A stretch of 64,000 nt of DNA, taken from Bryobacterales bacterium. Lineage in GTDB: Bacteria > Acidobacteriota > Terriglobia > Bryobacterales > UBA6623. Of the stretch, positions 10,693 through 59,450 are shown one piece after another. A program made the position numbers and the translations under genes. The notes under the pieces were generated by a model. That model was not told where the DNA came from. It saw only the letters and a program-made list of their open reading frames with translations, and searched no databases. The stretch lies in contig CBDEGU010000007.1 in the NCBI GenBank assembly GCA_965238045.1, forward strand, positions 67,271-131,270, in the 5' to 3' direction. How positions within the stretch are numbered: position 1 is the stretch's first letter; each line of letters opens with the position of its first letter.

Positions 10693-12540
10693 ATGCCGTC
10701 ATGGAAGCATCTTGATCATCTGGTGGCGCTGAAGGAGCGCGCCGCATCGCTGCCGGCATCTCCGGGAGTCTACCTCTACAAATCCGCCGCCGGGCAGGTC
10801 CTTTATATCGGCAAGGCCAAGAACCTGCGCGACCGCGTGCGGAGCTATTTTCTGCAAGAAAAGTTCGCCGATGTCAAGACGGGCACGCTGCTTTCCGAGG
10901 CCCGCGATATCGACTACATCGTGGTGGCGAATGAAAAAGAGGCGCTAGCGCTCGAGAACAACCTGATCAAGCAGAGCCAGCCTCGTTACAATGTTCTGCT
11001 CCGCGACGACAAGACCTACCCCTACATCAAACTGACCAAGGAGCGGTTTCCGCGTGTCTACGTCACGCGACGGCTGCGTAAGGACGGCGCAACCTACTTC
11101 GGTCCCTATTTCCCGGGAAACTTGGCTTACCGGCTCGTGAAATTCATCCACCGGCATTTTCGCGTTCCCTCATGCCGTGTCGATCTCACCCGCTTCCACC
11201 CCCGCCCGTGCCTGGAGTTTCACATTCACCGCTGCTGGGGTCCCTGCGTGGACGGGCTGACCAGCGACGAAGCCTACACTCAGGCGGTGAGCGACGTGCG
11301 GACATTCCTCGAAGGCCGGCGTCAGGATCTGGTCAAGGATTTGCGGCTGCGCATGGAGCAAGCCTCCGAGGGCATGGAGTTTGAACGCGCCGCCGCCCTG
11401 CGCGATCTGATCACCACCGTGGAGGAGCTCGACCAGCGCCAGCGAGTAGCGGCGGCGGAGGGACATGACGCCGATATCTTCGGTATTTGCGCCGAGCCGC
11501 CCCTGGTGGCCGTGAATCTGTTTCATGTTCGCAATGGACGCGTTGTGGACCGGCGGGCGTTTTATTGGGAAGACGCCGCGATGTATCACGAGTCCGACTT
11601 CCTGGCCAGTTTGATGAAACAAATCTATCTCGACGCCAACTATGTGCCGTCTCTGATTCACACCCCGGCCGGGTTTGACGACCAGGAACTGCTCGAGGAG
11701 TTCCTCACCGAAAAACGAGGCCGCAAAGTCGTCATCTCCACTCCCCGGCGGGGATCGAAGAAGGCCATGCTGGATCTAGTCCAGACCAACGCGCGGCATG
11801 GTTTTGAACAGCGGTTTCGGATCAGCAAGCCAAGCGCCAAGATGATGATGTCGGCGCTGGCCGAGGCGCTGAACTTGCCCGAAGTTCCCGCCCGCATAGA
11901 ATGTTTTGACATCTCGCACATCCAGGGGGCCGATACCGTGGCCTCGATGGTGGTCTGGGAAAACGGCCGGATGAACAAGTCCGGCTACCGCAAGTTCATC
12001 ATCAAAGGCGTGGCGGGCGTCGACGATTTCGCGTCGATGCGCGAAGCAGTCACGCGGCGCTATCGCCGCCTGCTGGAGGAGAACAAACCATTGCCGGGGC
12101 TGGTGCTCGTCGATGGAGGCATCGGGCAACTGCACTCTGCCGCCGAGGCGCTGGCTTCGCTGGGCATCATCAATCAGCCGCTGGCGGCCATTGCCAAGCG
12201 CGAGGAAACGATCTTCGTCGAGGGTCAAGAAAAGGACCCGGTGTACCTGGACCGCTTCTCGCCGATCCTGCACTTGGTGCAGATGGTTCGCGACGAAGCC
12301 CACCGGTTCGCTGTGACGTTCCATCGCAAGCGCAGGTCCCAGAGCCGCTTGCGGACCGTGCTGCTCGATGTGCCTGGAGTTGGAGAGAAGACAGCGCGAC
12401 AACTCCTGCGAAGCTTCGGCAGCCTGAAGAAGGTTCAAGCCAGCAGCCTGGAAGAACTGGCTCGGGTTGTAACACGCGCACAAGCCCAAAGCATCCATAA
12501 GCACTTTGCCGGCAGCCCCGCGGGAACATCCACGCTCTAA
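10693..12540 (+). CDS. uvrC: excinuclease ABC subunit C
   Basis: GIY-YIG N-terminus (GVYLYKSAAGQVLYIGKAKNLRDRVRSY), a UVR segment and a C-terminal HhH-like tail. ATG 10693 sits one codon inside the TTG-initiated ORF. Confidence 0.95.
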   Translation: MPSWKHLDHLVALKERAASLPASPGVYLYKSAAGQVLYIGKAKNLRDRVRSYFLQEKFADVKTGTLLSEARDIDYIVVANEKEALALENNLIKQSQPRYNVLLRDDKTYPYIKLTKERFPRVYVTRRLRKDGATYFGPYFPGNLAYRLVKFIHRHFRVPSCRVDLTRFHPRPCLEFHIHRCWGPCVDGLTSDEAYTQAVSDVRTFLEGRRQDLVKDLRLRMEQASEGMEFERAAALRDLITTVEELDQRQRVAAAEGHDADIFGICAEPPLVAVNLFHVRNGRVVDRRAFYWEDAAMYHESDFLASLMKQIYLDANYVPSLIHTPAGFDDQELLEEFLTEKRGRKVVISTPRRGSKKAMLDLVQTNARHGFEQRFRISKPSAKMMMSALAEALNLPEVPARIECFDISHIQGADTVASMVVWENGRMNKSGYRKFIIKGVAGVDDFASMREAVTRRYRRLLEENKPLPGLVLVDGGIGQLHSAAEALASLGIINQPLAAIAKREETIFVEGQEKDPVYLDRFSPILHLVQMVRDEAHRFAVTFHRKRRSQSRLRTVLLDVPGVGEKTARQLLRSFGSLKKVQASSLEELARVVTRAQAQSIHKHFAGSPAGTSTL

Positions 12541-31348: not shown

Positions 31349-31960
31349 ATGCTTGATCCAAACGCGGACCCGGCGACCGGCGCCGGGGGAGGGGCCGCGG
31401 CTGGCAAAGCGGAAAACTCCGCTGAGCCGTCCTTTGTTTCCAAGCTGATTCAGGGTTTCCGCTCCGGCGAATCCGGCAAGGAGGGCATCAGGACGCGGCG
31501 GCGCTTTGTCACCTTCGCCATCGCTGGTTTTCTCACAACGAACTTTCTGATGTTCTTGCGGTTCTTCTTCCCGCGAACCATCTTCGAGCCGAAAACCGTG
31601 TTTCGTATCGGCATGCCGGCCGATTTCGGTGTCGGGGTGGATACGAAATTTCAGAAGGCGCGGCGCATCTGGGTTGTCAAAAACACTGAGCGGCTGTTCG
31701 TGATCAACGCGATCTGCACGCATCTAGGCTGCACGCCGGACTGGAAAGAGTCAGAACAGAAATATAAGTGCCCCTGTCATGGCAGCGGTTATGATCCGGA
31801 AGGCATCAATTACGAGGGTCCGGCGCCCCGTCCCATGGACCGCGCTAGGGTAGAGATCGACCCCGAAGGCCAGATTGTCGTGGATACTAGTGTCACCTTT
31901 AAGTGGGAAAAAGGCAAGCGAAGCCAGTTTGATGATCCGGGTGCTTACGTCGCCATCTGA
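31349..31960 (+). CDS. Rieske 2Fe-2S subunit of a cytochrome bc-type complex
   Basis: CTHLGC...CPCHGS boxes, an RTRRRF twin-arginine motif and one TM helix. Confidence 0.9.
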   Translation: MLDPNADPATGAGGGAAAGKAENSAEPSFVSKLIQGFRSGESGKEGIRTRRRFVTFAIAGFLTTNFLMFLRFFFPRTIFEPKTVFRIGMPADFGVGVDTKFQKARRIWVVKNTERLFVINAICTHLGCTPDWKESEQKYKCPCHGSGYDPEGINYEGPAPRPMDRARVEIDPEGQIVVDTSVTFKWEKGKRSQFDDPGAYVAI

Positions 31961-42312: not shown

Positions 42313-43008
42313 CTACTGAATGCGCGCCAGTTCCTTGAGGTCGAGTTTTCCCGTGTAGATGGCCATGCCGAGGGCCGCGTGCACGCCCATCTGGCCTAAG
42401 CGCCGAATCTCTTCGAGCGTCGTAATGCCTCCGGCGGCGGTAATCTCCCGCTCGGTGGCCCTCCGCAGCCGGGCGTACCAGTCCAAGTCCGTTCCTTCGA
42501 GCATGCCCTCCTTGTCGACATAGGTACACAGGAAGCCGCCGCAGTAGGGTTCCAGCTCCTCGATCACCTCTTCGGCCCGAAGATCGGTCGCCTCCCTCCA
42601 GCCTTTCACTACGATGTGTCCGCCCTGGGAGTCCAGGGCCAGAAGGATTTTCTCCCGGCCGATCGCCTGGCCCAGTGCCTCGAGAAACCGGTGATTGACG
42701 CCATTGCCGTCGTAGGCCGCCGTTCCGACAATGACCTTCGATGCGCCGGCCTCCACCAGCGCTTGCGCCCTCTCCACCGAGCGCACACCGCCCCCAACCC
42801 TGGTCACCGCGCTAGCCGCCAGTTCACGCACGATCGAATCATTCGACCCCGTGCCAATGGCGGCGTCGAGGTCGATCACTTGAATCTCGGGAAAGGCGGC
42901 GAACTTTTCGAGCATCCTGGCCGGGGAATCCCCTTCCAAAGCCTTCTTCCGTCCCTGAACCAACTGGACGACCTTGCCCCCCATCAGATCAATGCATGGA
43001 AGGATCAT
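42313..43008 (-). CDS. hisA: ProFAR isomerase
   Basis: [19 protein letters not shown]... (beta/alpha)8 HisA/His6-like sequence. ATGA overlap with the hisF stop. The ORF extension to 43236 is rejected. Confidence 0.85.
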
Positions 43009-43787
43009 GATTTCCCCGTCCCCGCCCCTCTCGTGCGAACCGGTATGCCGTGCCCGGCGAGGATCTCCTTCAGCCCGTCCACCGTATAGGCGCCGTAGTG
43101 GAAGATCGAGGCCGCCAGTGCGGCGTCTGCTTCGCCTTCGCTCAGTACTTTGACGAAATCCTCGGGCTTCCCGCCCCCCCCGCTGGCGATCACCGGGATC
43201 TGCGTATTCCTCGATATCGCGCGGGTCAATTCGCAATCAAAGCCGATTTGGGTGCCGTCGCGGTCCATTGAGGTCAGCAGGATCTCGCCCGCTCCGAGCG
43301 CTTCTCCCCTCGCGGCCCACTCGACCGCATCCATGCCAGTGTCGGTCCGTCCTCCATAGGTGAATACATTCCACCCGCCCGCATCCCTCCGGCGGGCGTC
43401 GATCGCCAGCACGACCGCTTGCGCCCCGAACTCTTGGGAAAGTTCACCGAGCAGTTCCGGCCTCTCCACCGCCGCCGTATTCACCGAGACCTTGTCCGCG
43501 CCGACAACCAGGATCTTCCTGGCGTCCTTTACTGACCGTATGCCCCCGCCGACGGTGAGCGGGATGAAGACTTCCCGCGCCGTACGCTCCACCAGGTCGC
43601 GCATGATGTCGCGCCGGTCGCTCGATGCCGTGATGTCGAGAAAGACCAGTTCGTCGGCTCCGTCGCGGTTGTAGGCGTTCGCCAGCTCGACCGGGTCTCC
43701 GGCATCGCGCAGCCCGACGAAATGGACGCCCTTGACGACCCGGCCCGCTTGAACATCGAGGCAAGGGATAATGCGCTTCGCTAGCAT
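43005..43787 (-). CDS. hisF: imidazole glycerol phosphate synthase, cyclase subunit
   Basis: [12 protein letters not shown]...[11 protein letters not shown]...[15 protein letters not shown]. Confidence 0.95.
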
Positions 43788-44383
43788 TCCAGAAAATTCC
43801 GCATGATCCGCTGGCCGGCCGCGCCCGATTTCTCCGGGTGAAACTGAACCGCGTACACGTTGTCCGACTCCAGGGCCGAGGTATAGCGCACTCCATACAC
43901 GCTGTGCGCGGCGGCGCGCTCGCCGGCCGCTTCGGTTGGGACATAGTAGCTGTGAGCGAAATACACGTAGGGATGCTCTTCCAGACCGGCCAGCAGCTTC
44001 GGCCGGCCTCTCGGCTCGAGCTGGTTCCAGCCCATTTGCGGCACCCGCGCTTCGGCCGCGAAACGCTTGACTTCTCCAGGATAGATGCCCAGCCCGCGCA
44101 GTTCCGGCGCTTCCTCACTTTTCTCAAACAAGAGGTGCAGGCCCAAACAGATGCCCAGGAACGGCACCCCGGCGGCGATGCGTTCCTTCAGCGTCTGGCG
44201 CACGCCGAGCGCGTCGAGCGAGCGAATCAGCTGTCCGAAATGTCCCACGCCCGGCAGGATGATCCGGTCGGCCCTCGCCAGTCCGCCGCTCTCGCGGACG
44301 ATCTCGTAGCTGACTCCTAGCGCGTCCAGCGTGTTTTCCACCGACCTGAGATTGCCGGCTCCGTAATCGAAAATCGCGATCAT
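43781..44383 (-). CDS. hisH: imidazole glycerol phosphate synthase, glutaminase subunit
   Basis: [15 protein letters not shown], nucleophile context GICLGLHLL and FHPEKS. The ORF extension to 44476 is rejected. Confidence 0.9.
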
Positions 44384-44408
44384 GCCTGCTCCGCCATCCA
44401 GACCGCCG

Positions 44409-45017
44409 TCAGGCTTCTCTCGAGGCTTTTTCCAGCAGTCCCTTGGTGCTCGGGAGCTGGTCCTTAAGCCTGGCATCCTTCGAGCAGCCGTATCGCATCG
44501 CCCGCGCGAAGCACTTGAAAATCGCCTCGATCTTGTGATGGCTCGATCGGCCGTACATCACTCGCGCATGCAGGTTCGCGCCGCAATGCGTCACGAAGCC
44601 GTCGAAGAAATCCTCCAGCAATTCAACCTGCAAGTCTCCGACGAGCCGGAACCGCACCGGCGCGTGATAGGCTAGCGCGGGCCGGCCGCCCAGATCCACC
44701 GCGACCACCGCCAGCGTTTCATCCATCGGCAGAACAAAGTATCCCGCGCGATTGATGCCGACCCGGTCTCCGAGCGCCTTGGCGAAACATTGCCCCAGCA
44801 CGATGCCTGCGTCTTCGACCGTGTGATGCTGATCCACGTCGAGATCGCCCGTGGCTTCCAGGTCGAGGTCAAATCCGCCGTGCCTGGTAAACAGTTCCAG
44901 CATGTGGTCGAAAAAGCGAATGCCGGTCGCAATCTTGTAGCGTCCCCTGCCCTCGATGCGCAGTTTGGCCCGAATCTGGGTCTCCTTAGTCATTCGTTCG
45001 ATTGTGGCGACTCTCAT
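44409..45017 (-). CDS. hisB: imidazoleglycerol-phosphate dehydratase
   Basis: [24 protein letters not shown] and [16 protein letters not shown]. Confidence 0.95.
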
Positions 45018-45074
45018 CTCTGTATCCCCTGGCGGCCTTGGACCTTGCGCGCGGGTACGGCTCGAACGTGCCCG

Positions 45075-46160
45075 CTAGTCCTCACTCCCGACGATCTGTT
45101 CAAGGCTCGCCAGGAGCCGTTCGGTCTGCTTTCTGGTACCTGCGGTGATTCGTGCTGTGCCGGCAAGATCCCCGCCGCGGTCCCGAATCAAGATCCCTTG
45201 TTGCCGCAAGGTTTCGCAAATCTGTTTCGACCGCTCGCCGAAGCGCGCCAGCACGAAATTCGCCCGGCTCGGAAAATACCCCACGCCCAGCCGGTCCAGG
45301 CCTTCGCACAACATCCGCCGGGCATCGAGCGCCTCGGCCACGTACTCTCGAACATAGTCCTGATCGCCGACGGCTTCGGCGGCGCAGGCCGCCGCCAGAG
45401 CGTTGACGCTGTAAGGGGATTGCCCCTTGCTCACGAGCGCGATGTTCTCGGCTTGCGAGAGCAGGCAGCCAATACGAAAACCCGCCATGCCGTACGCCTT
45501 CGAGAAAGTGCGGCTGACGAAGAGATTCGGATAGGCGTCGAGCAACCCGAGCGCCGTCACGCCGTGGAACTCGAAATAGGCCTCGTCGATCAGTACCGCC
45601 GCGTCACCGGCGCTGGCGAGAAGTTTCTCGATCTCCGCCAGCCCGATCGCTCCTCCGGTCGGATTATTGGGATTCGAGATCAGCACCGCCCGGGTTCGTT
45701 GGCTGATCGACTCGATCAATGCCTCGAGCGGGAAGGCGAGTTCAGGCAGCTGGTAGGGGACCGCCCGCGGTTCGGCGCCGGCGAGTTCAGTGTAGAAACG
45801 GTACATCGAGTAGGCGGGCGAGGGGATCAGCACCTCGTCGCCCGCCTCCACATAGGTGCTGATCAGGCAGTGAATGGCCTCGTCGGTACCGTTAGTTAGC
45901 AGCAGACGGTCCGGCGGCACGCGCAGGAATCCGGCCAGCACCTCCACCGTCTCGGAATACTCCGGATAGGTTGCGAAAAAATCCGGTTCCATCAAGCGCG
46001 CGATCAACGAGACGACTTTCGGCGAACAGCCGACGGTGTTTTCGTTGAAGTCCAGCCGCAGCTTGCCGCGCCGTCCGCCGGTCGGGGGCGAATAGGGAGC
46101 CATGCGCTCGACGGCCCGGCGCGGTTTTGGACGCGAGATGGTCATTGTCTCACTCCTCAA
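45075..46160 (-). CDS. hisC: histidinol-phosphate aminotransferase
   Basis: Class-II aminotransferase with PLP lysine context SRTFSKAYGMAGFRIG. Confidence 0.9.
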   Translation of the reverse strand: MRSETMTISRPKPRRAVERMAPYSPPTGGRRGKLRLDFNENTVGCSPKVVSLIARLMEPDFFATYPEYSETVEVLAGFLRVPPDRLLLTNGTDEAIHCLISTYVEAGDEVLIPSPAYSMYRFYTELAGAEPRAVPYQLPELAFPLEALIESISQRTRAVLISNPNNPTGGAIGLAEIEKLLASAGDAAVLIDEAYFEFHGVTALGLLDAYPNLFVSRTFSKAYGMAGFRIGCLLSQAENIALVSKGQSPYSVNALAAACAAEAVGDQDYVREYVAEALDARRMLCEGLDRLGVGYFPSRANFVLARFGERSKQICETLRQQGILIRDRGGDLAGTARITAGTRKQTERLLASLEQIVGSED

Positions 46161-47415
46161 TGCGCACCTCGATCGAACGCGCGTGAGCCTCCAAACCTTC
46201 GGCCCGGGCGAGCGTCGTAATCGCCGGCGCGAGCTTTCGCAAGCCGGGCTCGGTGAGTTTCTGCACCGAAATGAGCTTCACGTAATCGAGCACCGACAAG
46301 CCGCCGCGAAGCCGCGCCGCGCCGGCGGTCGGCAGTACGTGATTGGGCCCCGAAGCGTAATCACCCGCCGCTTCGGGACTCCATTCCCCGATGAATACGC
46401 TCCCGGCGTTTTGCACGTTCTTCAACAGCGATTCATCGGGAATCGAGAGATGTTCGGGCGCGAAGCGATTGGCAATCTCGACCGCTTCCTCGATCGATCT
46501 CGTGATGATCACCGCCGCATTGCGCTCGATCGACTGCCGGGCGACCCTGGCGGTGGGCAGCGACGCGAGCTGTTTGCTAATCTCCTTCGAGACCTGTTCG
46601 GCCAGCCGCTTCGAGGTGGTTAGCAGCACGGCGCTGGCATCGGGGTCATGTTCAGCCTGCGCCAGCATATCGGCCGCCAGAATGCGCGCCTCTTTCCGGG
46701 CCGCGCCCTTGGGTGCGATCAGCAGAATTTCGCTCGGCCCAGCGATGAAGTCGATCCCTACCACGCCCGCCAGCAGCTTCTTCGCCGCCGCCACGTAAAC
46801 ATTACCCGGACCGACGATGCGTTCGGCTCGCGGCACGGTATCGGTTCCAAACGCGAATGCGGCAATGGCCTGCGCCCCCCCCATGTGAAAGAAATTCTCG
46901 ACGCCGAGCCGGCCCGCGGTCCCCAAAGTTTCCAGCGACGATCCCGGCGATGCCACCAAAACCGACTTGACCCCCGCCACCTGTGCCGGGATCACGGTCA
47001 TCATCAGGGTCGACGGCAGCGGATAGCGCCCACCCGGCACATAGGCACCCACCGATTCCAGCGGGCGCACGATCTGCCCCAGCCGCACGCCGCGCTCGGT
47101 CGTCTTCATCCAGCTCTGGGGCATCTGCAACCGGGCGAATTTCCGCACCTGGGCCGACGCCGTGTCCAGTGAGCGGCGGAACTCCCGGTCGAGCCGGCCC
47201 GAGGCGTCGGCAAGCTCCGCCACCGGGACCCGCACCGAATCCCGCGCCAGCCCGTCGAAGCGCCGGGCGTAGGCCAGCAGACCCGCGTCGCCGCGTTTCT
47301 CGACCGCCTCCAGAATGGGAGCGACCACTGACTCGGCCCGGCCCAGACGCAGCTGCCTCGTATCGAGCAGACGCTGCATCGCTTTCGAGTCCGTGCTGGC
47401 GATGGTTCTTAGCAT
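46150..47415 (-). CDS. hisD: histidinol dehydrogenase
   Basis: GPSEILLIA, QAEHD and SPEAAGDYASGPNHVLPT. Start taken at MLRTIAS. The ORF extends to 47457. Confidence 0.9.
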   Translation of the reverse strand: MLRTIASTDSKAMQRLLDTRQLRLGRAESVVAPILEAVEKRGDAGLLAYARRFDGLARDSVRVPVAELADASGRLDREFRRSLDTASAQVRKFARLQMPQSWMKTTERGVRLGQIVRPLESVGAYVPGGRYPLPSTLMMTVIPAQVAGVKSVLVASPGSSLETLGTAGRLGVENFFHMGGAQAIAAFAFGTDTVPRAERIVGPGNVYVAAAKKLLAGVVGIDFIAGPSEILLIAPKGAARKEARILAADMLAQAEHDPDASAVLLTTSKRLAEQVSKEISKQLASLPTARVARQSIERNAAVIITRSIEEAVEIANRFAPEHLSIPDESLLKNVQNAGSVFIGEWSPEAAGDYASGPNHVLPTAGAARLRGGLSVLDYVKLISVQKLTEPGLRKLAPAITTLARAEGLEAHARSIEVRIEE

Positions 47416-47507
47416 CCGAAATTTCACCCTTAAGAACGAGTTACGGAAAACAAACAATCCCCTTCCGAAACTGCCGTGTGTTTCCGTGGCGTTGAAGAAT
47501 CAATGAG

Positions 47508-47903
47508 TTAGCTCAGCCGCGGATTCCTGGTCTTCTCATATACGGATTCAGGATCGTAAGCGGGTTCTTCGAACTGTTGCCACTCTCCATCCTCGAGGCG
47601 GCGGTAGAAACAGCTTCGGAACCCATTATGGCAAACGCCTGGTCCCAGCGACTCGGCCCGAACCAGTACGGTGTCTTCGTCGCAGTCCACGAAAATCTCC
47701 TTGACCAGCAAATAGTGACCCGACGTGCCGCCTTTGAGCCACAGCTCGTCGCGCGAGCGGCTGTAGAAAGTCACCTTCCCGGTCTCGCACGTCTTGTCGA
47801 AGGCCGCTTGGTTCATGAATCCAACCATCAGCACCCGCCCGTCCCCGGCGTCTTGGACTACCGCCGGCACCAATCCGTCTAATTTCGAGAAATCCAGTTT
47901 CAC
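47508..47903 (-). CDS. hisI: phosphoribosyl-AMP cyclohydrolase
   Basis: GLVPAVVQD...GFMNQAAF...SRSRDELWLKGGTSGH...DCDEDTVL. Start set at GTG 47903 (or GTG 47912), because the ORF-track ATG at 47981 would read through the upstream terminator. Confidence 0.85.
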   Translation of the reverse strand: MKLDFSKLDGLVPAVVQDAGDGRVLMVGFMNQAAFDKTCETGKVTFYSRSRDELWLKGGTSGHYLLVKEIFVDCDEDTVLVRAESLGPGVCHNGFRSCFYRRLEDGEWQQFEEPAYDPESVYEKTRNPRLS

Positions 47904-47934
47904 AAGTTTCACCCGTTCTATTCGCGCCCGCAAT

Positions 47935-47967
47935 AAAAAAGCCCGCCCGGCTCGAAGCCGGCGGGCC
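47935..47967 (-). terminator. intrinsic terminator of the his leader (attenuator)
   Basis: Minus strand GGCCCGCCGGCT-TCG-AGCCGGGCGGGC (10 bp, one bulge) followed by TTTTTTATT. It lies ~22 nt upstream of the hisI GTG. Confidence 0.8.
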
Positions 47968-47996
47968 AGTCTTTCAGCCAATATCAGATCGAAGGA

Positions 47997-48080
47997 TTAC
48001 GGCATGAAAGGGTCCCACCGGCTGATGACCCCGTGGTGATGGGCATGAGGATGGCGACCGTGCTGCAATCCGAAAAGCAT
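47997..48080 (-). CDS. candidate his operon leader peptide (27 aa) MLFGLQHGRHPHAHHHGVISRWDPFMP
   Basis: Six His codons, five of them within codons 10-16, including CAT CAC CAC. The ORF is positioned between a promoter-like element and the terminator. Confidence 0.6.
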   Translation of the reverse strand: MLFGLQHGRHPHAHHHGVISRWDPFMP

Positions 48081-48088
48081 CAACCCTA

Positions 48089-48118
48089 AGTATATCCGCA
48101 AAATCCCGCCCGCGTCAA
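48089..48118 (-). promoter_or_regulatory. candidate promoter TTGACG-18-TATACT for the his leader
   Basis: Hexamers read on the minus strand (48118..48113 and 48094..48089). The -10 ends 8 nt before the leader ATG. Confidence 0.5.
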
Positions 48119-48148
48119 AGCTGCCACCCCCAGTTTGTTCTCCTTGCC

Positions 48149-48178
48149 GCCGCTTCCCCGCGCCGCTTCCCCGCGCCG
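48149..48178. repeat. 13-bp tandem repeat GCCGCTTCCCCGC x2.3
   Basis: Read directly. It is intergenic. Confidence 0.8.
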
Positions 48179-48267
48179 GAACCTGCCTCGGAACCCTTCC
48201 CCAAAATGTGCCCTCGGCCGATGGGCCCGGGAACGGCCTCGCCGGGCGCTAGGCGCCGCTAGCCATC

Positions 48268-49677
48268 TCAGAGCGGCCTTGCAACGGCGATATAGGGGCC
48301 CTCGGGCGACGACACGCCGTCAATCACGATGCGCACGCCCAAATCTCCATCCGCGGCGCTCTCCGGCACTCGCACGACGAGTTGATAGAGGCCCGCGCAG
48401 CAGGGCGCCAGGCCGGCATAGAAGATGTCTTCGGCCCCCAGTTCCATCCCTCCAAAAGCGACGCGAACTGACTGCGTCGCCAACGGCGCCAGAGGGTTGT
48501 CCGCGTTCACATATGGGGGGATCTCTCCAGCTTCGTATGAGGGCCGCGTCGGCCCAAACCCAGTGCCAAACAAGCTGATCGTTTCACCAGGAGCGGCCGG
48601 GGTGGTCTCCACTCCCTCGCCGAACAGTCCCGCTGCGCCCACCAGACCGGGACCGCCTTGGTGAAACGCGGCAATCGGGTTTCGTCCGTCGTCGCGGTTC
48701 ACAAAATCGAAGAAGGCTGGGGTGGTCGCGACGATGTCGACCGGCCTGGGCTGGCTGCGAACTTCATTTGTAGTGCCGCAGCTTCGCACGGCGACGACGC
48801 TGGCGGGACTCAGCCCTCCCAGATGAGGAACCTGTAGATTGATCTGACCCGGCAGTACAGCCAGAAGCGGAGACCGCTCCCCGTCAATCTCGACACAGGT
48901 ACCCGCTAGCTGCGTGCTGACCCGTCCGGTGCTGTCGAGGGCCGCAACCAGCGCCGCCACGCCCGAACGCGCAAACTCCTGGCCGTAGATCGTAACCAGC
49001 GCATAGGCCGTAACCGTGCGCACGACGGGCGTTCCGGTCGCCAAGACGATGCCGCCCTCGTTGATCGACAGCTGAGCCACACCAGCCGGGTCCGGCTCGA
49101 TACTTGCCTCAATGGTATAGACAACATCGCCGGTGTGGCGCCTGTCCCCGTTGGCCGCGTTGCCCGCCGCGGCAAAGCGCACACGCCCAATATCTTCCGA
49201 TGGGGCGGTCCAGTGCATCAGAAACGAACCGATCTCGCCCGTCGTGGGAAGCGTGTGAGTTGCCCATTGCAGCGGAGCGGACGCGCACGGGCTGATCTTG
49301 TCGCTCTCCTTCACTTGAACCGACGGCTCGGCGGCTGTGAACGACCCGGCAAGGTCACAGCCGTCCGTGGTGCGGGCGGTCAACTCAAACCCCCATCGAA
49401 GGGCGTTGGGGTCCTCGATTCTCACTTCGACCGGCATGATCTCGCCCGGCCGGTAGCGGTACTCTCCTATCGGCATCCCGCCAAGCAGGATGCTCACCCG
49501 GCCCGGCCCTGTGTTGACCTGCCCGACGTGGCAACTGCTCTGAGCGCAGCCGCCTTCTCCCGGAAAGTCTCCCCCGGTCGCACCGGCCGGCGCGCCGTCT
49601 TCGCGGGAAAGCAGCAATCCGGGCCAGCTCACCAGCAGCGTGCTCAGCACGGTCAACGCGAGCCGTCCGATCTTCAT
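48268..49677 (-). CDS. secreted protein with a Solibacter-type C-terminal domain
   Basis: C-terminus ...CAGLYQLVVRVPESAADGDLGVRIVIDGVSSPEGPYIAVARPL resembles the acidobacterial 'Soli_cterm' family. Signal MKIGRLALTVLSTLLVSWPG. The N-terminal domain contains GGCAQSSCH. Confidence 0.7.
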   Translation of the reverse strand: MKIGRLALTVLSTLLVSWPGLLLSREDGAPAGATGGDFPGEGGCAQSSCHVGQVNTGPGRVSILLGGMPIGEYRYRPGEIMPVEVRIEDPNALRWGFELTARTTDGCDLAGSFTAAEPSVQVKESDKISPCASAPLQWATHTLPTTGEIGSFLMHWTAPSEDIGRVRFAAAGNAANGDRRHTGDVVYTIEASIEPDPAGVAQLSINEGGIVLATGTPVVRTVTAYALVTIYGQEFARSGVAALVAALDSTGRVSTQLAGTCVEIDGERSPLLAVLPGQINLQVPHLGGLSPASVVAVRSCGTTNEVRSQPRPVDIVATTPAFFDFVNRDDGRNPIAAFHQGGPGLVGAAGLFGEGVETTPAAPGETISLFGTGFGPTRPSYEAGEIPPYVNADNPLAPLATQSVRVAFGGMELGAEDIFYAGLAPCCAGLYQLVVRVPESAADGDLGVRIVIDGVSSPEGPYIAVARPL

Positions 49678-49709
49678 GAAGGTCTTTCCGCGCCCGCCCA
49701 GCCCGATGC

Positions 49710-51605
49710 CTACCAGCCGTCGGCGTAACGCGACCGGTACGGGTCCGCTCCAGCCGAGATCACTCCGTTGGGGCTCATCACCACCGCCACCGGCGCCGAC
49801 CCGCTGTTCCATTCGCTCCGGCGTTCGATCTCGTGGCCCCACTCCTTGAGCTTGGCCTCCACCACTGCGGTGAATCGCACGTCGAGCAAAAGCAGATTCG
49901 GATCCATCGCATGGTCGTCAAAGCTGGCGACCAAATGGCGCGTCTGAACCCGTGGCGCCTCGACCGCCGCCTGAGGCTGCAAGCCGAACTCCACGATCGC
50001 CAGCATCACTTGCAGCAAAGCCTGGTCCTGCTGGTCGCCGCCCGGGGTCGAAAGGGCGATCAGCGGCTCGCCTCCGCGCGTCACGATCGTGGGCGAGAGC
50101 GTAATGCGCGGCCGCTTGCCCGGCGCGACGACATTCGGATGATCGGGAATCATCACGAAACTCTGGGCGCGCTGCGTGAGCGGGATACCCGTGTCGCCCG
50201 CGATCACCGACGGCATCCAGGCGCCTGATGGCGTGGAGGAAAACATCATTCCGCTACTGTCGATCAGGTTCAGGCAGGTCGTGTCTTTCGAGGCCAGCGC
50301 GTCGGTCAGCGGCCGCAACTGTCCTGCCCAGAGCGACGGGTGCGGGGGCGTGCCCTCACCGAATTTCCCCGGACGAAATTCAGCCGACGCCCGCGCCGGA
50401 TCGATCAGCTTCCGCCGCCGCGCCGCGTACTCCTTGCTCAGCAGTTCTCTGGGAATATCCACGAATTTCGGATCGGCATAGTAGGTGTCCCGATCGGCGT
50501 ACGCCAGCTTGAGGGCCTCGACGATAGTATGGATATATTCCGGTGCATTCCAGCCCATCGAGCGCAGATCATAGCCTTCGAGCAAATTGAGGGCCTCGAT
50601 CATCACCGGTCCTTGCGTCCAGAACCCGCTCTTGTAGACCCCGAATCCCCGATAAGTCGTCCGCTCCGGCTGCTCGACTTCGAGCCGGAAGGCGGCCATG
50701 TCCTCGTACCGCAGCAACCCTCCGTTCTGGCGGCAGAACTCACCGATGCGGCGCGCAATGTCACCCCGATAGAAGAAGTCGCGCACCGCGTCGATCGCCC
50801 TTTCCCGCCCCGCTCCCTCCGCCAGCGCCTTCTTCTCGGCTCCCACCATCGCGCGAAGCGTGCGGGCCAGATCCGGTTGCCGGAAGATACTCCCCACGCG
50901 AGGCGCCCGCCCTCCGGGCATAAACACCTTTTGCGAGGTTGGAAAGAGCCGGAAAATTCTCGCCGACTGGGCGATTGACGACGCCCGCAGCCGGTCCAGT
51001 GGCAGCCGCTCGGCAAGGTCGATCGCCGGCCGAGCCACCTCGGAAAACGATTTCGTGCCAAAATCTCTCAGCGCCAGTAATCCCCCATCGACCATGCCAG
51101 GGACCAGCACCGGCAACATGCCATACGACGGAATCGGACCGTTCTTCCTGCCGCGCCTGAGCGCTTCCTGATCAAATTCGGCATTTCCCCGCGGGCTCTC
51201 AAAAACCGCGCGGGTCATCTTCGCCGGGGCCGTCCCCAATCCTGAGATCGAGTGGACCTTGCCGTCTTTCGTCCGGATGAGAATCGGCGCCTCTCCGCCA
51301 AAGCCAAAATGCGAGAATTCCGACACGGCGCCGGCGAAGAGCCCGGCCACGCCCGCGTCGACCGCATTGCCTCGCGCGTGAAAGATCCGCATCGACGCCT
51401 CGGTCACCAGCGGAGTGCCGGCGGCTACCGCTGCCCTGGTGCCCCGAACTACCGGCCGCATCAGCCGCCAGCTCTTCATATACTTAGGCGGCCGCGGCCG
51501 CTTCGCCGGGGACTGCTTAGGCGGGGACTGGGACCAGACCGGCGGCGCAAGCCAAATCCACGTGACTCCCGCGATTGCTGTCAACAGAAGAAACAAGCGT
51601 CTCAT
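49710..51605 (-). CDS. ggt: gamma-glutamyltranspeptidase family protein
   Basis: GGT-like sequence with autoprocessing Thr context KDTTCLNLID and TPGGDQQDQ. Signal MRRLFLLLTAIAG. Confidence 0.85.
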   Translation of the reverse strand: MRRLFLLLTAIAGVTWIWLAPPVWSQSPPKQSPAKRPRPPKYMKSWRLMRPVVRGTRAAVAAGTPLVTEASMRIFHARGNAVDAGVAGLFAGAVSEFSHFGFGGEAPILIRTKDGKVHSISGLGTAPAKMTRAVFESPRGNAEFDQEALRRGRKNGPIPSYGMLPVLVPGMVDGGLLALRDFGTKSFSEVARPAIDLAERLPLDRLRASSIAQSARIFRLFPTSQKVFMPGGRAPRVGSIFRQPDLARTLRAMVGAEKKALAEGAGRERAIDAVRDFFYRGDIARRIGEFCRQNGGLLRYEDMAAFRLEVEQPERTTYRGFGVYKSGFWTQGPVMIEALNLLEGYDLRSMGWNAPEYIHTIVEALKLAYADRDTYYADPKFVDIPRELLSKEYAARRRKLIDPARASAEFRPGKFGEGTPPHPSLWAGQLRPLTDALASKDTTCLNLIDSSGMMFSSTPSGAWMPSVIAGDTGIPLTQRAQSFVMIPDHPNVVAPGKRPRITLSPTIVTRGGEPLIALSTPGGDQQDQALLQVMLAIVEFGLQPQAAVEAPRVQTRHLVASFDDHAMDPNLLLLDVRFTAVVEAKLKEWGHEIERRSEWNSGSAPVAVVMSPNGVISAGADPYRSRYADGW

Positions 51606-59381: not shown

Positions 59382-59450
59382 AGGGAGATTGTACTGCTTC
59401 GAGGCGTGCGGTGGGAAGCAACGGTCGCTCGTGCCGGCGCTCCGGTCTGG

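Follow-up and report, generated by a model that had tools for sequence, protein, structure and literature searches.

A histidine-codon leader with an inferred leaderless start and a competing terminator precedes hisI in Bryobacterales: a probable transcription attenuator

On the minus strand of a 64,000-nucleotide (nt) stretch of a Bryobacterales genome (contig CBDEGU010000007.1; the whole stretch is called the window here), a promoter is followed by a histidine-rich leader open reading frame (ORF), then by an intrinsic terminator and finally by hisI-hisD-hisC-hisB-hisH-hisA-hisF, the genes being assigned by Pfam (Table 1). A sequence-only reading of the window had placed a ribosome-mediated histidine attenuator upstream of hisI. 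Each of the elements that it named, the promoter, the ORF, the terminator and the antiterminator strand, was found where it had said when we read the minus strand again, and the idea itself is supported by 106 conserved units in related loci and by the three-state folding of the window's own leader. We propose, with a probability of about 80%, that the element is a classical leader-peptide transcription attenuator with a leaderless ORF, which controls hisIDCBHAF through the level of charged tRNA-His.

Table 1. Elements of the hisI leader and the operon behind it, in window coordinates.
Feature	Coordinates	Strand	Basis
-35 hexamer TTGACG	48113..48118	-	sequence reading, promoter scan
-10 hexamer TATACT, 8 nt 5' of the leader ATG	48089..48094	-	sequence reading, promoter scan
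Leader ORF, 27 codons + TAA, MLFGLQHGRHPHAHHHGVISRWDPFMP (ATG at 48080; TAA at 47999-47997)	47997..48080	-	sequence reading; homologous mini-ORFs in relatives
Sensor His codons: 7 (48062-48060), 10 (48053-48051), 12 (48047-48045), 14-16 (48041-48033)	48033..48062	-	sequence reading
Region 1, 5' strand of the anti-antiterminator hairpin, codons 8-13	48041..48059	-	minimum-energy fold of the free transcript, window's leader only
Region 2, AGCCGGUGGGACC, pairs with region 1 or with the terminator 5' arm (antiterminator)	48011..48023	-	duplex energy, conservation
Middle hairpin (CUUUCAUGCC...GGCUGAAAG), spans the stop codon, enclosed by the antiterminator helix	47971..48010	-	-9.0 kcal/mol
Intrinsic terminator stem-loop, regions 3 and 4	47940..47967	-	-22.2 kcal/mol
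Terminator U-tract, T6	47935..47940	-	sequence reading
hisI, phosphoribosyl-AMP cyclohydrolase, first regulated gene	47508..47903	-	Pfam PF01502, E = 6e-30
Rest of the operon: hisD, hisC, hisB, hisH, hisA, hisF	42313..47457	-	Pfam matches

A small ORF with at least four His in eight residues occurs once in the 64-kb window, and this sole occurrence is the leader. We compared the window's own hisI leader (W) with related loci (L001-L167). HisI relatives were sampled from 80 genome loci and 80 metagenome loci, together with contigs encoding the nearest homologues; merging and removal of duplicates among the 163 hisI loci with enough upstream sequence gave the unit counts used below. Many of the HisI relatives are at 70-80% protein identity, and the named loci are nearly all from Bryobacterales (Acidobacteriota, Terriglobia). 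By the criterion used for the window, a His-rich mini-ORF lies no more than 450 nt upstream of hisI in 49 of the 80 genome loci, as against 6 of 3292 control windows (0.18%) from the same related loci, an enrichment of about 300-fold. In all, 106 distinct units of leader and terminator share one plan. A lack of the mini-ORF or its His codons in relatives would have refuted the sequence-only reading, and the Bryobacterales hisI loci show the opposite. Nothing comparable was seen upstream of hisI in the outgroup loci (Nitrospinota, Thermodesulfatator, Desulfosudis).

The leader peptides of these 106 units are 14-32 residues long (median 21) and contain 26% His and 16% Arg; beyond this content their sequence varies among clades. 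In the closest relatives (L081-L084, HisI 92% identical), W's ORF is kept with one substitution, while the spacer 3' of the stop codon has diverged and carries an insertion that folds into its own hairpin. Within 10 groups of related leaders, amino acid changes affect 13 of 53 His columns versus 71 of 155 other columns, and the variable columns are purely synonymous in 10 of 23 cases for His versus 18 of 89 for the rest. This pattern lends modest support to selection acting at the codon level. The His triplets of related leaders stay in frame, with synonymous changes between CAT and CAC. Across the 106 leaders, His is written CAT 356 times and CAC 230 times, whereas W's his genes (43005-47903) use CAC 17 times and CAT 10 times; the excess of CAT in the leaders may mean that the sensor favours the codon read by wobble, or that RNA pairing limits the choice.

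The promoter of W, with 18 nt between its two hexamers, also follows a pattern common to the family. A TAnnnT box stands 7-10 nt 5' of the leader start codon in 99 of 106 units; 79 of these boxes read exactly TATACT, and 65 units have a spacing of exactly 8 nt. Among these 99 units, an extended -10 (TGn) occurs in 57 (chance 5.8%) and a TTGAC-like -35 element, 16-19 nt upstream of the -10 box, in 32 (chance 3.3%). One or the other is present in 86 units, both in 3 and neither in 13, and this near-exclusive pattern of -35 and extended -10 is the behaviour of real sigma-70 promoters. The start codon is ATG in 90 of the 106 units (85%). RNA polymerase favours a pyrimidine at -1 and a purine at +1; a transcript that begins with the A is thus consistent with the pyrimidine found directly before the start codon in 46 of the 65 units whose spacing is 8 nt. 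Judged by promoter geometry, transcription would start at the A of the ATG or 1-2 nt upstream. A Shine-Dalgarno sequence cannot fit into a 5' leader of about 2 nt or less, and therefore the leader ORF is probably translated from a leaderless or 1-nt-leader mRNA. That the leader is leaderless or nearly so had been suggested from W itself, and the conservation of a -10 box 8 nt from the ATG now supports it. For comparison, a computational survey predicts about 13% of Acidobacteria genes to be leaderless (PMC3160421).

About 30 nt upstream of the -35 element, a 13-nt unit, GCGGGGAAGCGGC, is tandemly duplicated (48149-48174, minus strand); L081 and L082 have a single copy. Elsewhere in the window, no convincing second unit of leaderless mini-ORF and terminator was found, and a 9-residue ORF at 31903, considered as one, looks like chance. 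Two long ORFs (395 residues at 59393 on the minus strand and 417 residues at 11275 on the plus strand) start 6-9 nt after a TACAAT or TACACT box and are possible leaderless genes, although two are too few cases to carry more.

Downstream of the leader ORF, the terminator of W has the form GGCCCGCCGGCU-UCG-AGCCGGGCGGGC followed by T6 (47967-47935), and a compact GC-rich hairpin with a T-run is found in nearly all units, at -14 to -23 kcal/mol. Aligned terminator cells are paired at 98.3% in clade A (42 sequences), against 22-48% in slid registers, with three pairs that change on both sides; in clade C9 (24 sequences) they are 100% paired. In most loci 10-60 nt separate the terminator from the start of hisI, and the hairpin stays clear of the hisI ribosome-binding site, so that the controlled step would be transcription termination.

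What could control this terminator is a strand of the leader RNA that competes for its 5' arm. Within region 2 of W, AGCCGGUGGGAC (48023-48012) can pair along the 5' arm, with a single G-U pair and a single mismatch, and the duplex of region 2 with the arm has a predicted energy of -24.4 kcal/mol (z = -3.4 versus shuffles). For each locus we searched for the best duplex between the terminator 5' arm and the leader RNA upstream of it. Counted from the first base of the last His codon, the 5' strand of this complement begins at a median of 15 nt (quartiles 10-18), and between +4 and +25 nt in 57 of 63 loci; a complement at about 15 nt is found in every clade. Relative to the stop codon its place depends on the clade: inside the ORF (W and several others), overlapping the stop, or 3-6 nt past it (two clades). 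In clade A a core, GCCGGYGG, is always framed xxC CGG xGG while the stop codon shifts around it, and this core is conserved and pairs in register across the 42 sequences.

Measured against dinucleotide-shuffled sequence, the signal is modest (median z = -1.5; p <= 0.05 in 38% of loci), and we therefore rebuilt the null from natural sequence, ranking the segment just past the His run against all natural 33-mers of the same locus. Of the 106 loci, 45 have that segment among the top 5% and 60 among the top 10%, and in 2 it falls below the median; in W it outranks all 1634 natural 33-mers. In the alignments, antiterminator cells are paired at 81% (clade A) and 85% (clade C9) versus 24-49% in slid registers, with core pairs at 90-100%. 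The support for the putative antiterminator is conserved complementarity, not covariation.

Clades C8 and C9 (e.g. L058:2899-2982 and L110:486-578) carry a conserved internal A-C mismatch in the antiterminator, where GGCGAGCC or GCGACGGG stands opposite GGCCCGCC or GCCCGCCGC. Among the 24 sequences of C9, the position is A-C in 16 and G-C in 8, and in two perfectly paired C8 variants (L042, L047) the antiterminator is predicted to be favoured even without a ribosome. The mismatch may keep the antiterminator weaker than the terminator.

These findings bear on whether the hairpin is a regulated terminator at all. Control could operate at another level, by translational coupling, re-initiation or Rho-dependent polarity, with the hairpin acting as a constitutive leaky terminator or as an insulator against upstream read-through. 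Mycobacterial leaderless poly-Cys small ORFs do attenuate translation rather than transcription (10.1101/834739), and no strong terminator separates the ORF that ends at 48268 from the leader. Yet in nearly all units the hairpin has the U-tract and the stability of a strong, canonical intrinsic terminator, it leaves the hisI ribosome-binding site unsequestered, and the conserved pairing that competes with it suggests that the terminator itself is what is controlled; we therefore consider regulation at another level highly improbable.

A second question is whether the unit serves hisI or stands on its own. An Rfam scan of 47500-48600 at E <= 10 returned no His_leader (RF00514), T-box or other cis-regulatory match, as the sequence-only reading had anticipated in expecting His_leader to miss or match weakly, and 20 related loci gave no match at the gathering score. 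The element therefore falls outside the His_leader RF00514 and T-box families, though it would work like His_leader. The weak Rfam matches that were obtained are to small RNAs and align solely to the terminator hairpin. They could be taken to favour a stand-alone small gene or a dual-function small RNA, whose His/Arg-rich peptide or RNA of about 145 nt would work in trans, perhaps as a metal binder or a regulatory RNA, with cis control of hisI secondary or absent. Promoter, ORF and terminator do make a complete transcription unit, and trans-acting attenuator RNAs and leader peptides are documented, namely rnTrpL and peTrpL in Sinorhizobium (PMC6614838, PMC7298713). But the unit always lies immediately upstream of hisI, the peptide is unconserved beyond its His and Arg content, and a complement of the 5' arm at a fixed distance from the His codons would have no role in such a gene, all of which makes this explanation very unlikely. 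It would in any case be compatible with attenuation in cis.

For a cis-acting attenuator, the predicted folds of W describe three states. Folding yields the terminator on ribosome-free RNA, the antiterminator while a ribosome is stalled at His14 or His15, and the terminator again once the ribosome has reached the stop codon. The modelled ribosome shields the RNA from 15 nt upstream of the A-site codon to 12-14 nt downstream of it. Without it, the terminator has a probability of 0.77 and region 2 is held by codons 8-13, in a region 1:2 hairpin (48059-48011) predicted for W at -17.5 kcal/mol. This longer hairpin does the job once assigned to a GGGGUC:GACCCU pairing, which was meant to sequester region 2 and which is in none of the predicted structures. 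With the ribosome at His14 or His15, the probability of the terminator falls to 0.09 or 0.02, and AGCCGGUGGG pairs with CCCGCCGGCU so as to enclose the middle hairpin (a hairpin whose pairing is retained in L081 despite a change from UGAAAG to UGAGAG). A ribosome at His7 also yields the antiterminator (0.03). At the stop codon the value rises to 0.89, the exposed part of region 2 being paired with UUGGCUGA. When region 1 is masked, the antiterminator composite (-33.2 kcal/mol) and the terminator with the middle hairpin (-31.2 kcal/mol) are closely balanced; when it is free, the terminator configuration totals -48.7 kcal/mol.

The sequences show the elements themselves, their conservation and geometry across more than 100 relatives, and their predicted energetics; the transcription start, the translation of the leader ORF and the response to histidine are inferred. 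Indirect signs of a translated leader are the conserved ATG at a fixed distance from the -10 box and the synonymous changes in His columns. Starting from the A of the leader ATG or 1-2 nt upstream, the nascent RNA would offer its 5' end to a ribosome that loads without a Shine-Dalgarno sequence. When histidine is plentiful, this ribosome would pass the His codons, reach the stop codon and melt or partly cover region 2; the terminator would form and transcription would end before hisI. When His-tRNA is scarce, the ribosome would stall on the His codons (His14 and His15 being the predicted effective ones) and cover region 1. Region 2, exposed just past the leading edge of the ribosome, would then capture the newly made 5' arm, and the polymerase would enter the operon. 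If no ribosome loads, region 1 would sequester region 2 and termination would be the default.

Several observations weigh against this mechanism, or at least against parts of it. The relatives are nearly all metagenome-assembled genomes (MAGs). In the W model, a ribosome at His10, His12 or His16 leaves the terminator at 0.73-0.85; since only His7, His14 and His15 yield the antiterminator, the predicted switch depends on which His codon stalls the ribosome. At the stop codon, a ribosome on W covers about 5 nt of the 15-nt antiterminator strand, or about a third, whereas the median coverage across loci is 83%; termination in that state of W thus relies on the alternative pairing predicted by folding. 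Equilibrium folding of full-length transcripts predicts the three-state switch in 18 of 57 relatives; this test was not counted as support because we judged it unsuitable for a kinetic mechanism. When transcripts are cut before the 3' arm, the median capture of the 5' arm is 0.86 with a His-stalled ribosome versus 0.45 with the ribosome at stop, and in 41 of 57 loci stalling raises the capture by more than 0.2. Shuffled sequences already reach 0.72, because GC-rich arms pair easily, and we take this modelling as weak support for attenuation.

Covariation adds to these points. Compensatory changes in the helices, which the sequence-only reading had named as a check, are present in the terminator as covarying pairs, and in the antiterminator they are not above a column-shuffle control, two-sided changes being nearly absent. 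The sole clear event is in L012, where the 5' arm has changed from C to U, region 2 from G to A and the 3' arm from G to A relative to the others. There is also a precedent for caution: as cited in PMC1262725, leader peptides predicted for ilvB and leuA of Streptomyces coelicolor failed mutational tests as classical attenuators. Finally, the overall fold energy of the W leader is unexceptional (z = -0.17), and a promoter scan finds the W site to be the only sigma-70-like match in 9 kb, which alone is within chance expectation. Both would suit an accidental His-rich ORF beside an ordinary terminator, an explanation that is effectively refuted by the roughly 300-fold enrichment upstream of hisI and by 106 independent variants with the same geometry, and to which we attach virtually no weight.

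The last point of this kind comes from some related clades that keep the scaffold with few His codons or without an ORF. Together with the fact that terminator/antiterminator logic suits any effector, it might suggest that something other than a translating ribosome is at work, for instance an RNA-binding protein that binds histidine, or uncharged tRNA-His in direct contact with the leader, the His codons being incidental or a binding motif. However, neither T-box nor other known RNA families match, the in-frame start codon, ATG in 85% of units, is held at a fixed distance from the -10 box, the His triplets are in frame with synonymous CAT/CAC changes, and besides the pairing segments there is no conserved non-coding motif. 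We find a different effector hard to believe, and retain the translating ribosome as the sensor in the attenuator that we propose.

The exceptional clades are of several kinds. L007, L015, L018, L030 and L033 keep the scaffold of promoter (-10 TATGCT), mini-ORF and terminator upstream of hisI, with a peptide that has merely 2-4 scattered His codons and is very Arg-rich (e.g. VTRAARRRHRRHARHGQGNRRASRG); in L007 an in-frame canonical start codon is not evident. In L064, L067 and L071, and also in L062 and L052, the terminator hairpin (GGCCCGCC...GGCGGGC-T6) comes directly, 8 nt behind TATACT, and there is no leader ORF; in the first three the unit sits about 60-30 nt upstream of hisI. Further upstream, these ORF-less loci share a conserved motif, TTTCCACAAnnTTTCCT...ATTTTCGCC, of which L071 has a divergent version. 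They may be derived variants that answer to another regulator, or decayed attenuators. L022 and L026, from one MAG (CBDDCT01), are two hisI copies with identical terminator and hisI start, and in L022 coding-looking sequence stands where the leader would be, as far as the terminator. This would be explained by a duplication or by a break of the assembly within the leader.

A bolder picture can be drawn from the same material. The attenuator might be leaderless by obligation: it would fuse promoter, transcription start and start codon, and the 70S ribosome would load onto the 5' end of the nascent RNA and be coupled to the polymerase from the first codons. Amino-acid sensing in Acidobacteriota would then take this as its general form, the abundant terminated 145-nt RNA or its His/Arg-rich peptide could also function in trans, as for rnTrpL/peTrpL in rhizobia, and the ORF-less L064, L067 and L071 would be derived, differently regulated forms. 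We offer this whole picture as speculation and think it unlikely to hold.

Turning to the operon, hisI is monofunctional and heads the order hisI-D-C-B-H-A-F (42313-47903, minus strand). It had been assigned a GTG start about 22 nt past the terminator; the start is more probably the GTG at 47903 than the one at 47912, because homologues begin MKLDFS. Neither hisG nor hisE was found among the ORFs scanned adjoining the operon, so they are probably encoded elsewhere and perhaps regulated elsewhere. Directly upstream of the leader, on the same strand, lies a 524-residue ORF (48268-49842) without a Pfam match. Since no strong terminator was found between its end and the his promoter, the terminator of the attenuator may serve, in addition, to block transcription that comes through from this gene.

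Acidobacteriota are abundant soil bacteria, and to our knowledge their gene regulation is almost unstudied. The present analysis assigns a function to one conserved attenuator family and supplies more than 100 natural variants of it. What is new relative to the literature that we searched is the family, its phylum and the hisI-first operon under control; the mechanism is a textbook scheme that holds little surprise for a specialist, and leaderless leader peptides have precedents. The finding predicts leaderless translation for regulatory mini-ORFs across Acidobacteriota, and the family is a candidate for a new RNA-family model and for a simple reporter of histidine status in Bryobacterales. 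In addition, its natural variation (a stop codon that moves around a fixed antiterminator segment, the A-C mismatch, the ORF-less derivatives) may reveal geometric constraints in ribosome-mediated attenuation.

Our literature search, in which subscription journals were mostly outside coverage, found no prior description in Acidobacteria or Bryobacter. The papers searched (PMC9413887, PMC2965389) place His attenuators in Proteobacteria and a few Firmicutes groups only, those in Firmicutes (Bacillus cereus group, Peptostreptococcaceae, Erysipelotrichales) being predicted by comparative genomics. As far as these sources go, the Firmicutes leaders share with ours an independently evolved His peptide and a terminator/antiterminator pair upstream of his operons; they belong to other phyla, are unrelated in sequence and have three to five consecutive His codons, and no leaderless arrangement is reported for them there.

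Leaderless leader peptides are themselves known from other phyla. Deinococcus deserti has 14 predicted cases with mapping of transcription start sites (PMC4007540), and attenuators of Corynebacterium and Streptomyces have been described (PMC1262725). In these, the start codon is at the transcription start or 1 nt from it, upstream of genes for amino-acid biosynthesis or tRNA synthetases, as proposed here. None of the leaders in the text consulted serves a histidine operon, whereas the present family does, in Acidobacteriota, with its start inferred from promoter geometry. The mycobacterial poly-Cys small ORF Ms5788A differs in another way: such ORFs sequester the Shine-Dalgarno sequence and act on translation without an intrinsic terminator (10.1101/834739), whereas here a canonical terminator would be controlled.

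The closest functional parallel is the enterobacterial hisL. Ahead of a his operon, both have a short ORF containing a His-codon run and, behind it, an antiterminator and an intrinsic terminator that exclude each other, and the logic would be the same, with a His-stalled ribosome favouring the antiterminator and termination as the ribosome-free default. No homology of sequence or structure is detectable, the RF00514 model being negative, and the His codons are interspersed in Bryobacterales (HxHxHHH, HHRHxHxHH) instead of seven in a row. The Salmonella his leader is modelled as a six-segment A-F scheme. W fits a four-segment, trp-like scheme with an enclosed middle hairpin rather than these six segments. 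Lastly, the first regulated gene is hisI here and hisG for hisL, and the leader in Bryobacterales has no Shine-Dalgarno sequence, its -10 box lying 8 nt from the ATG.

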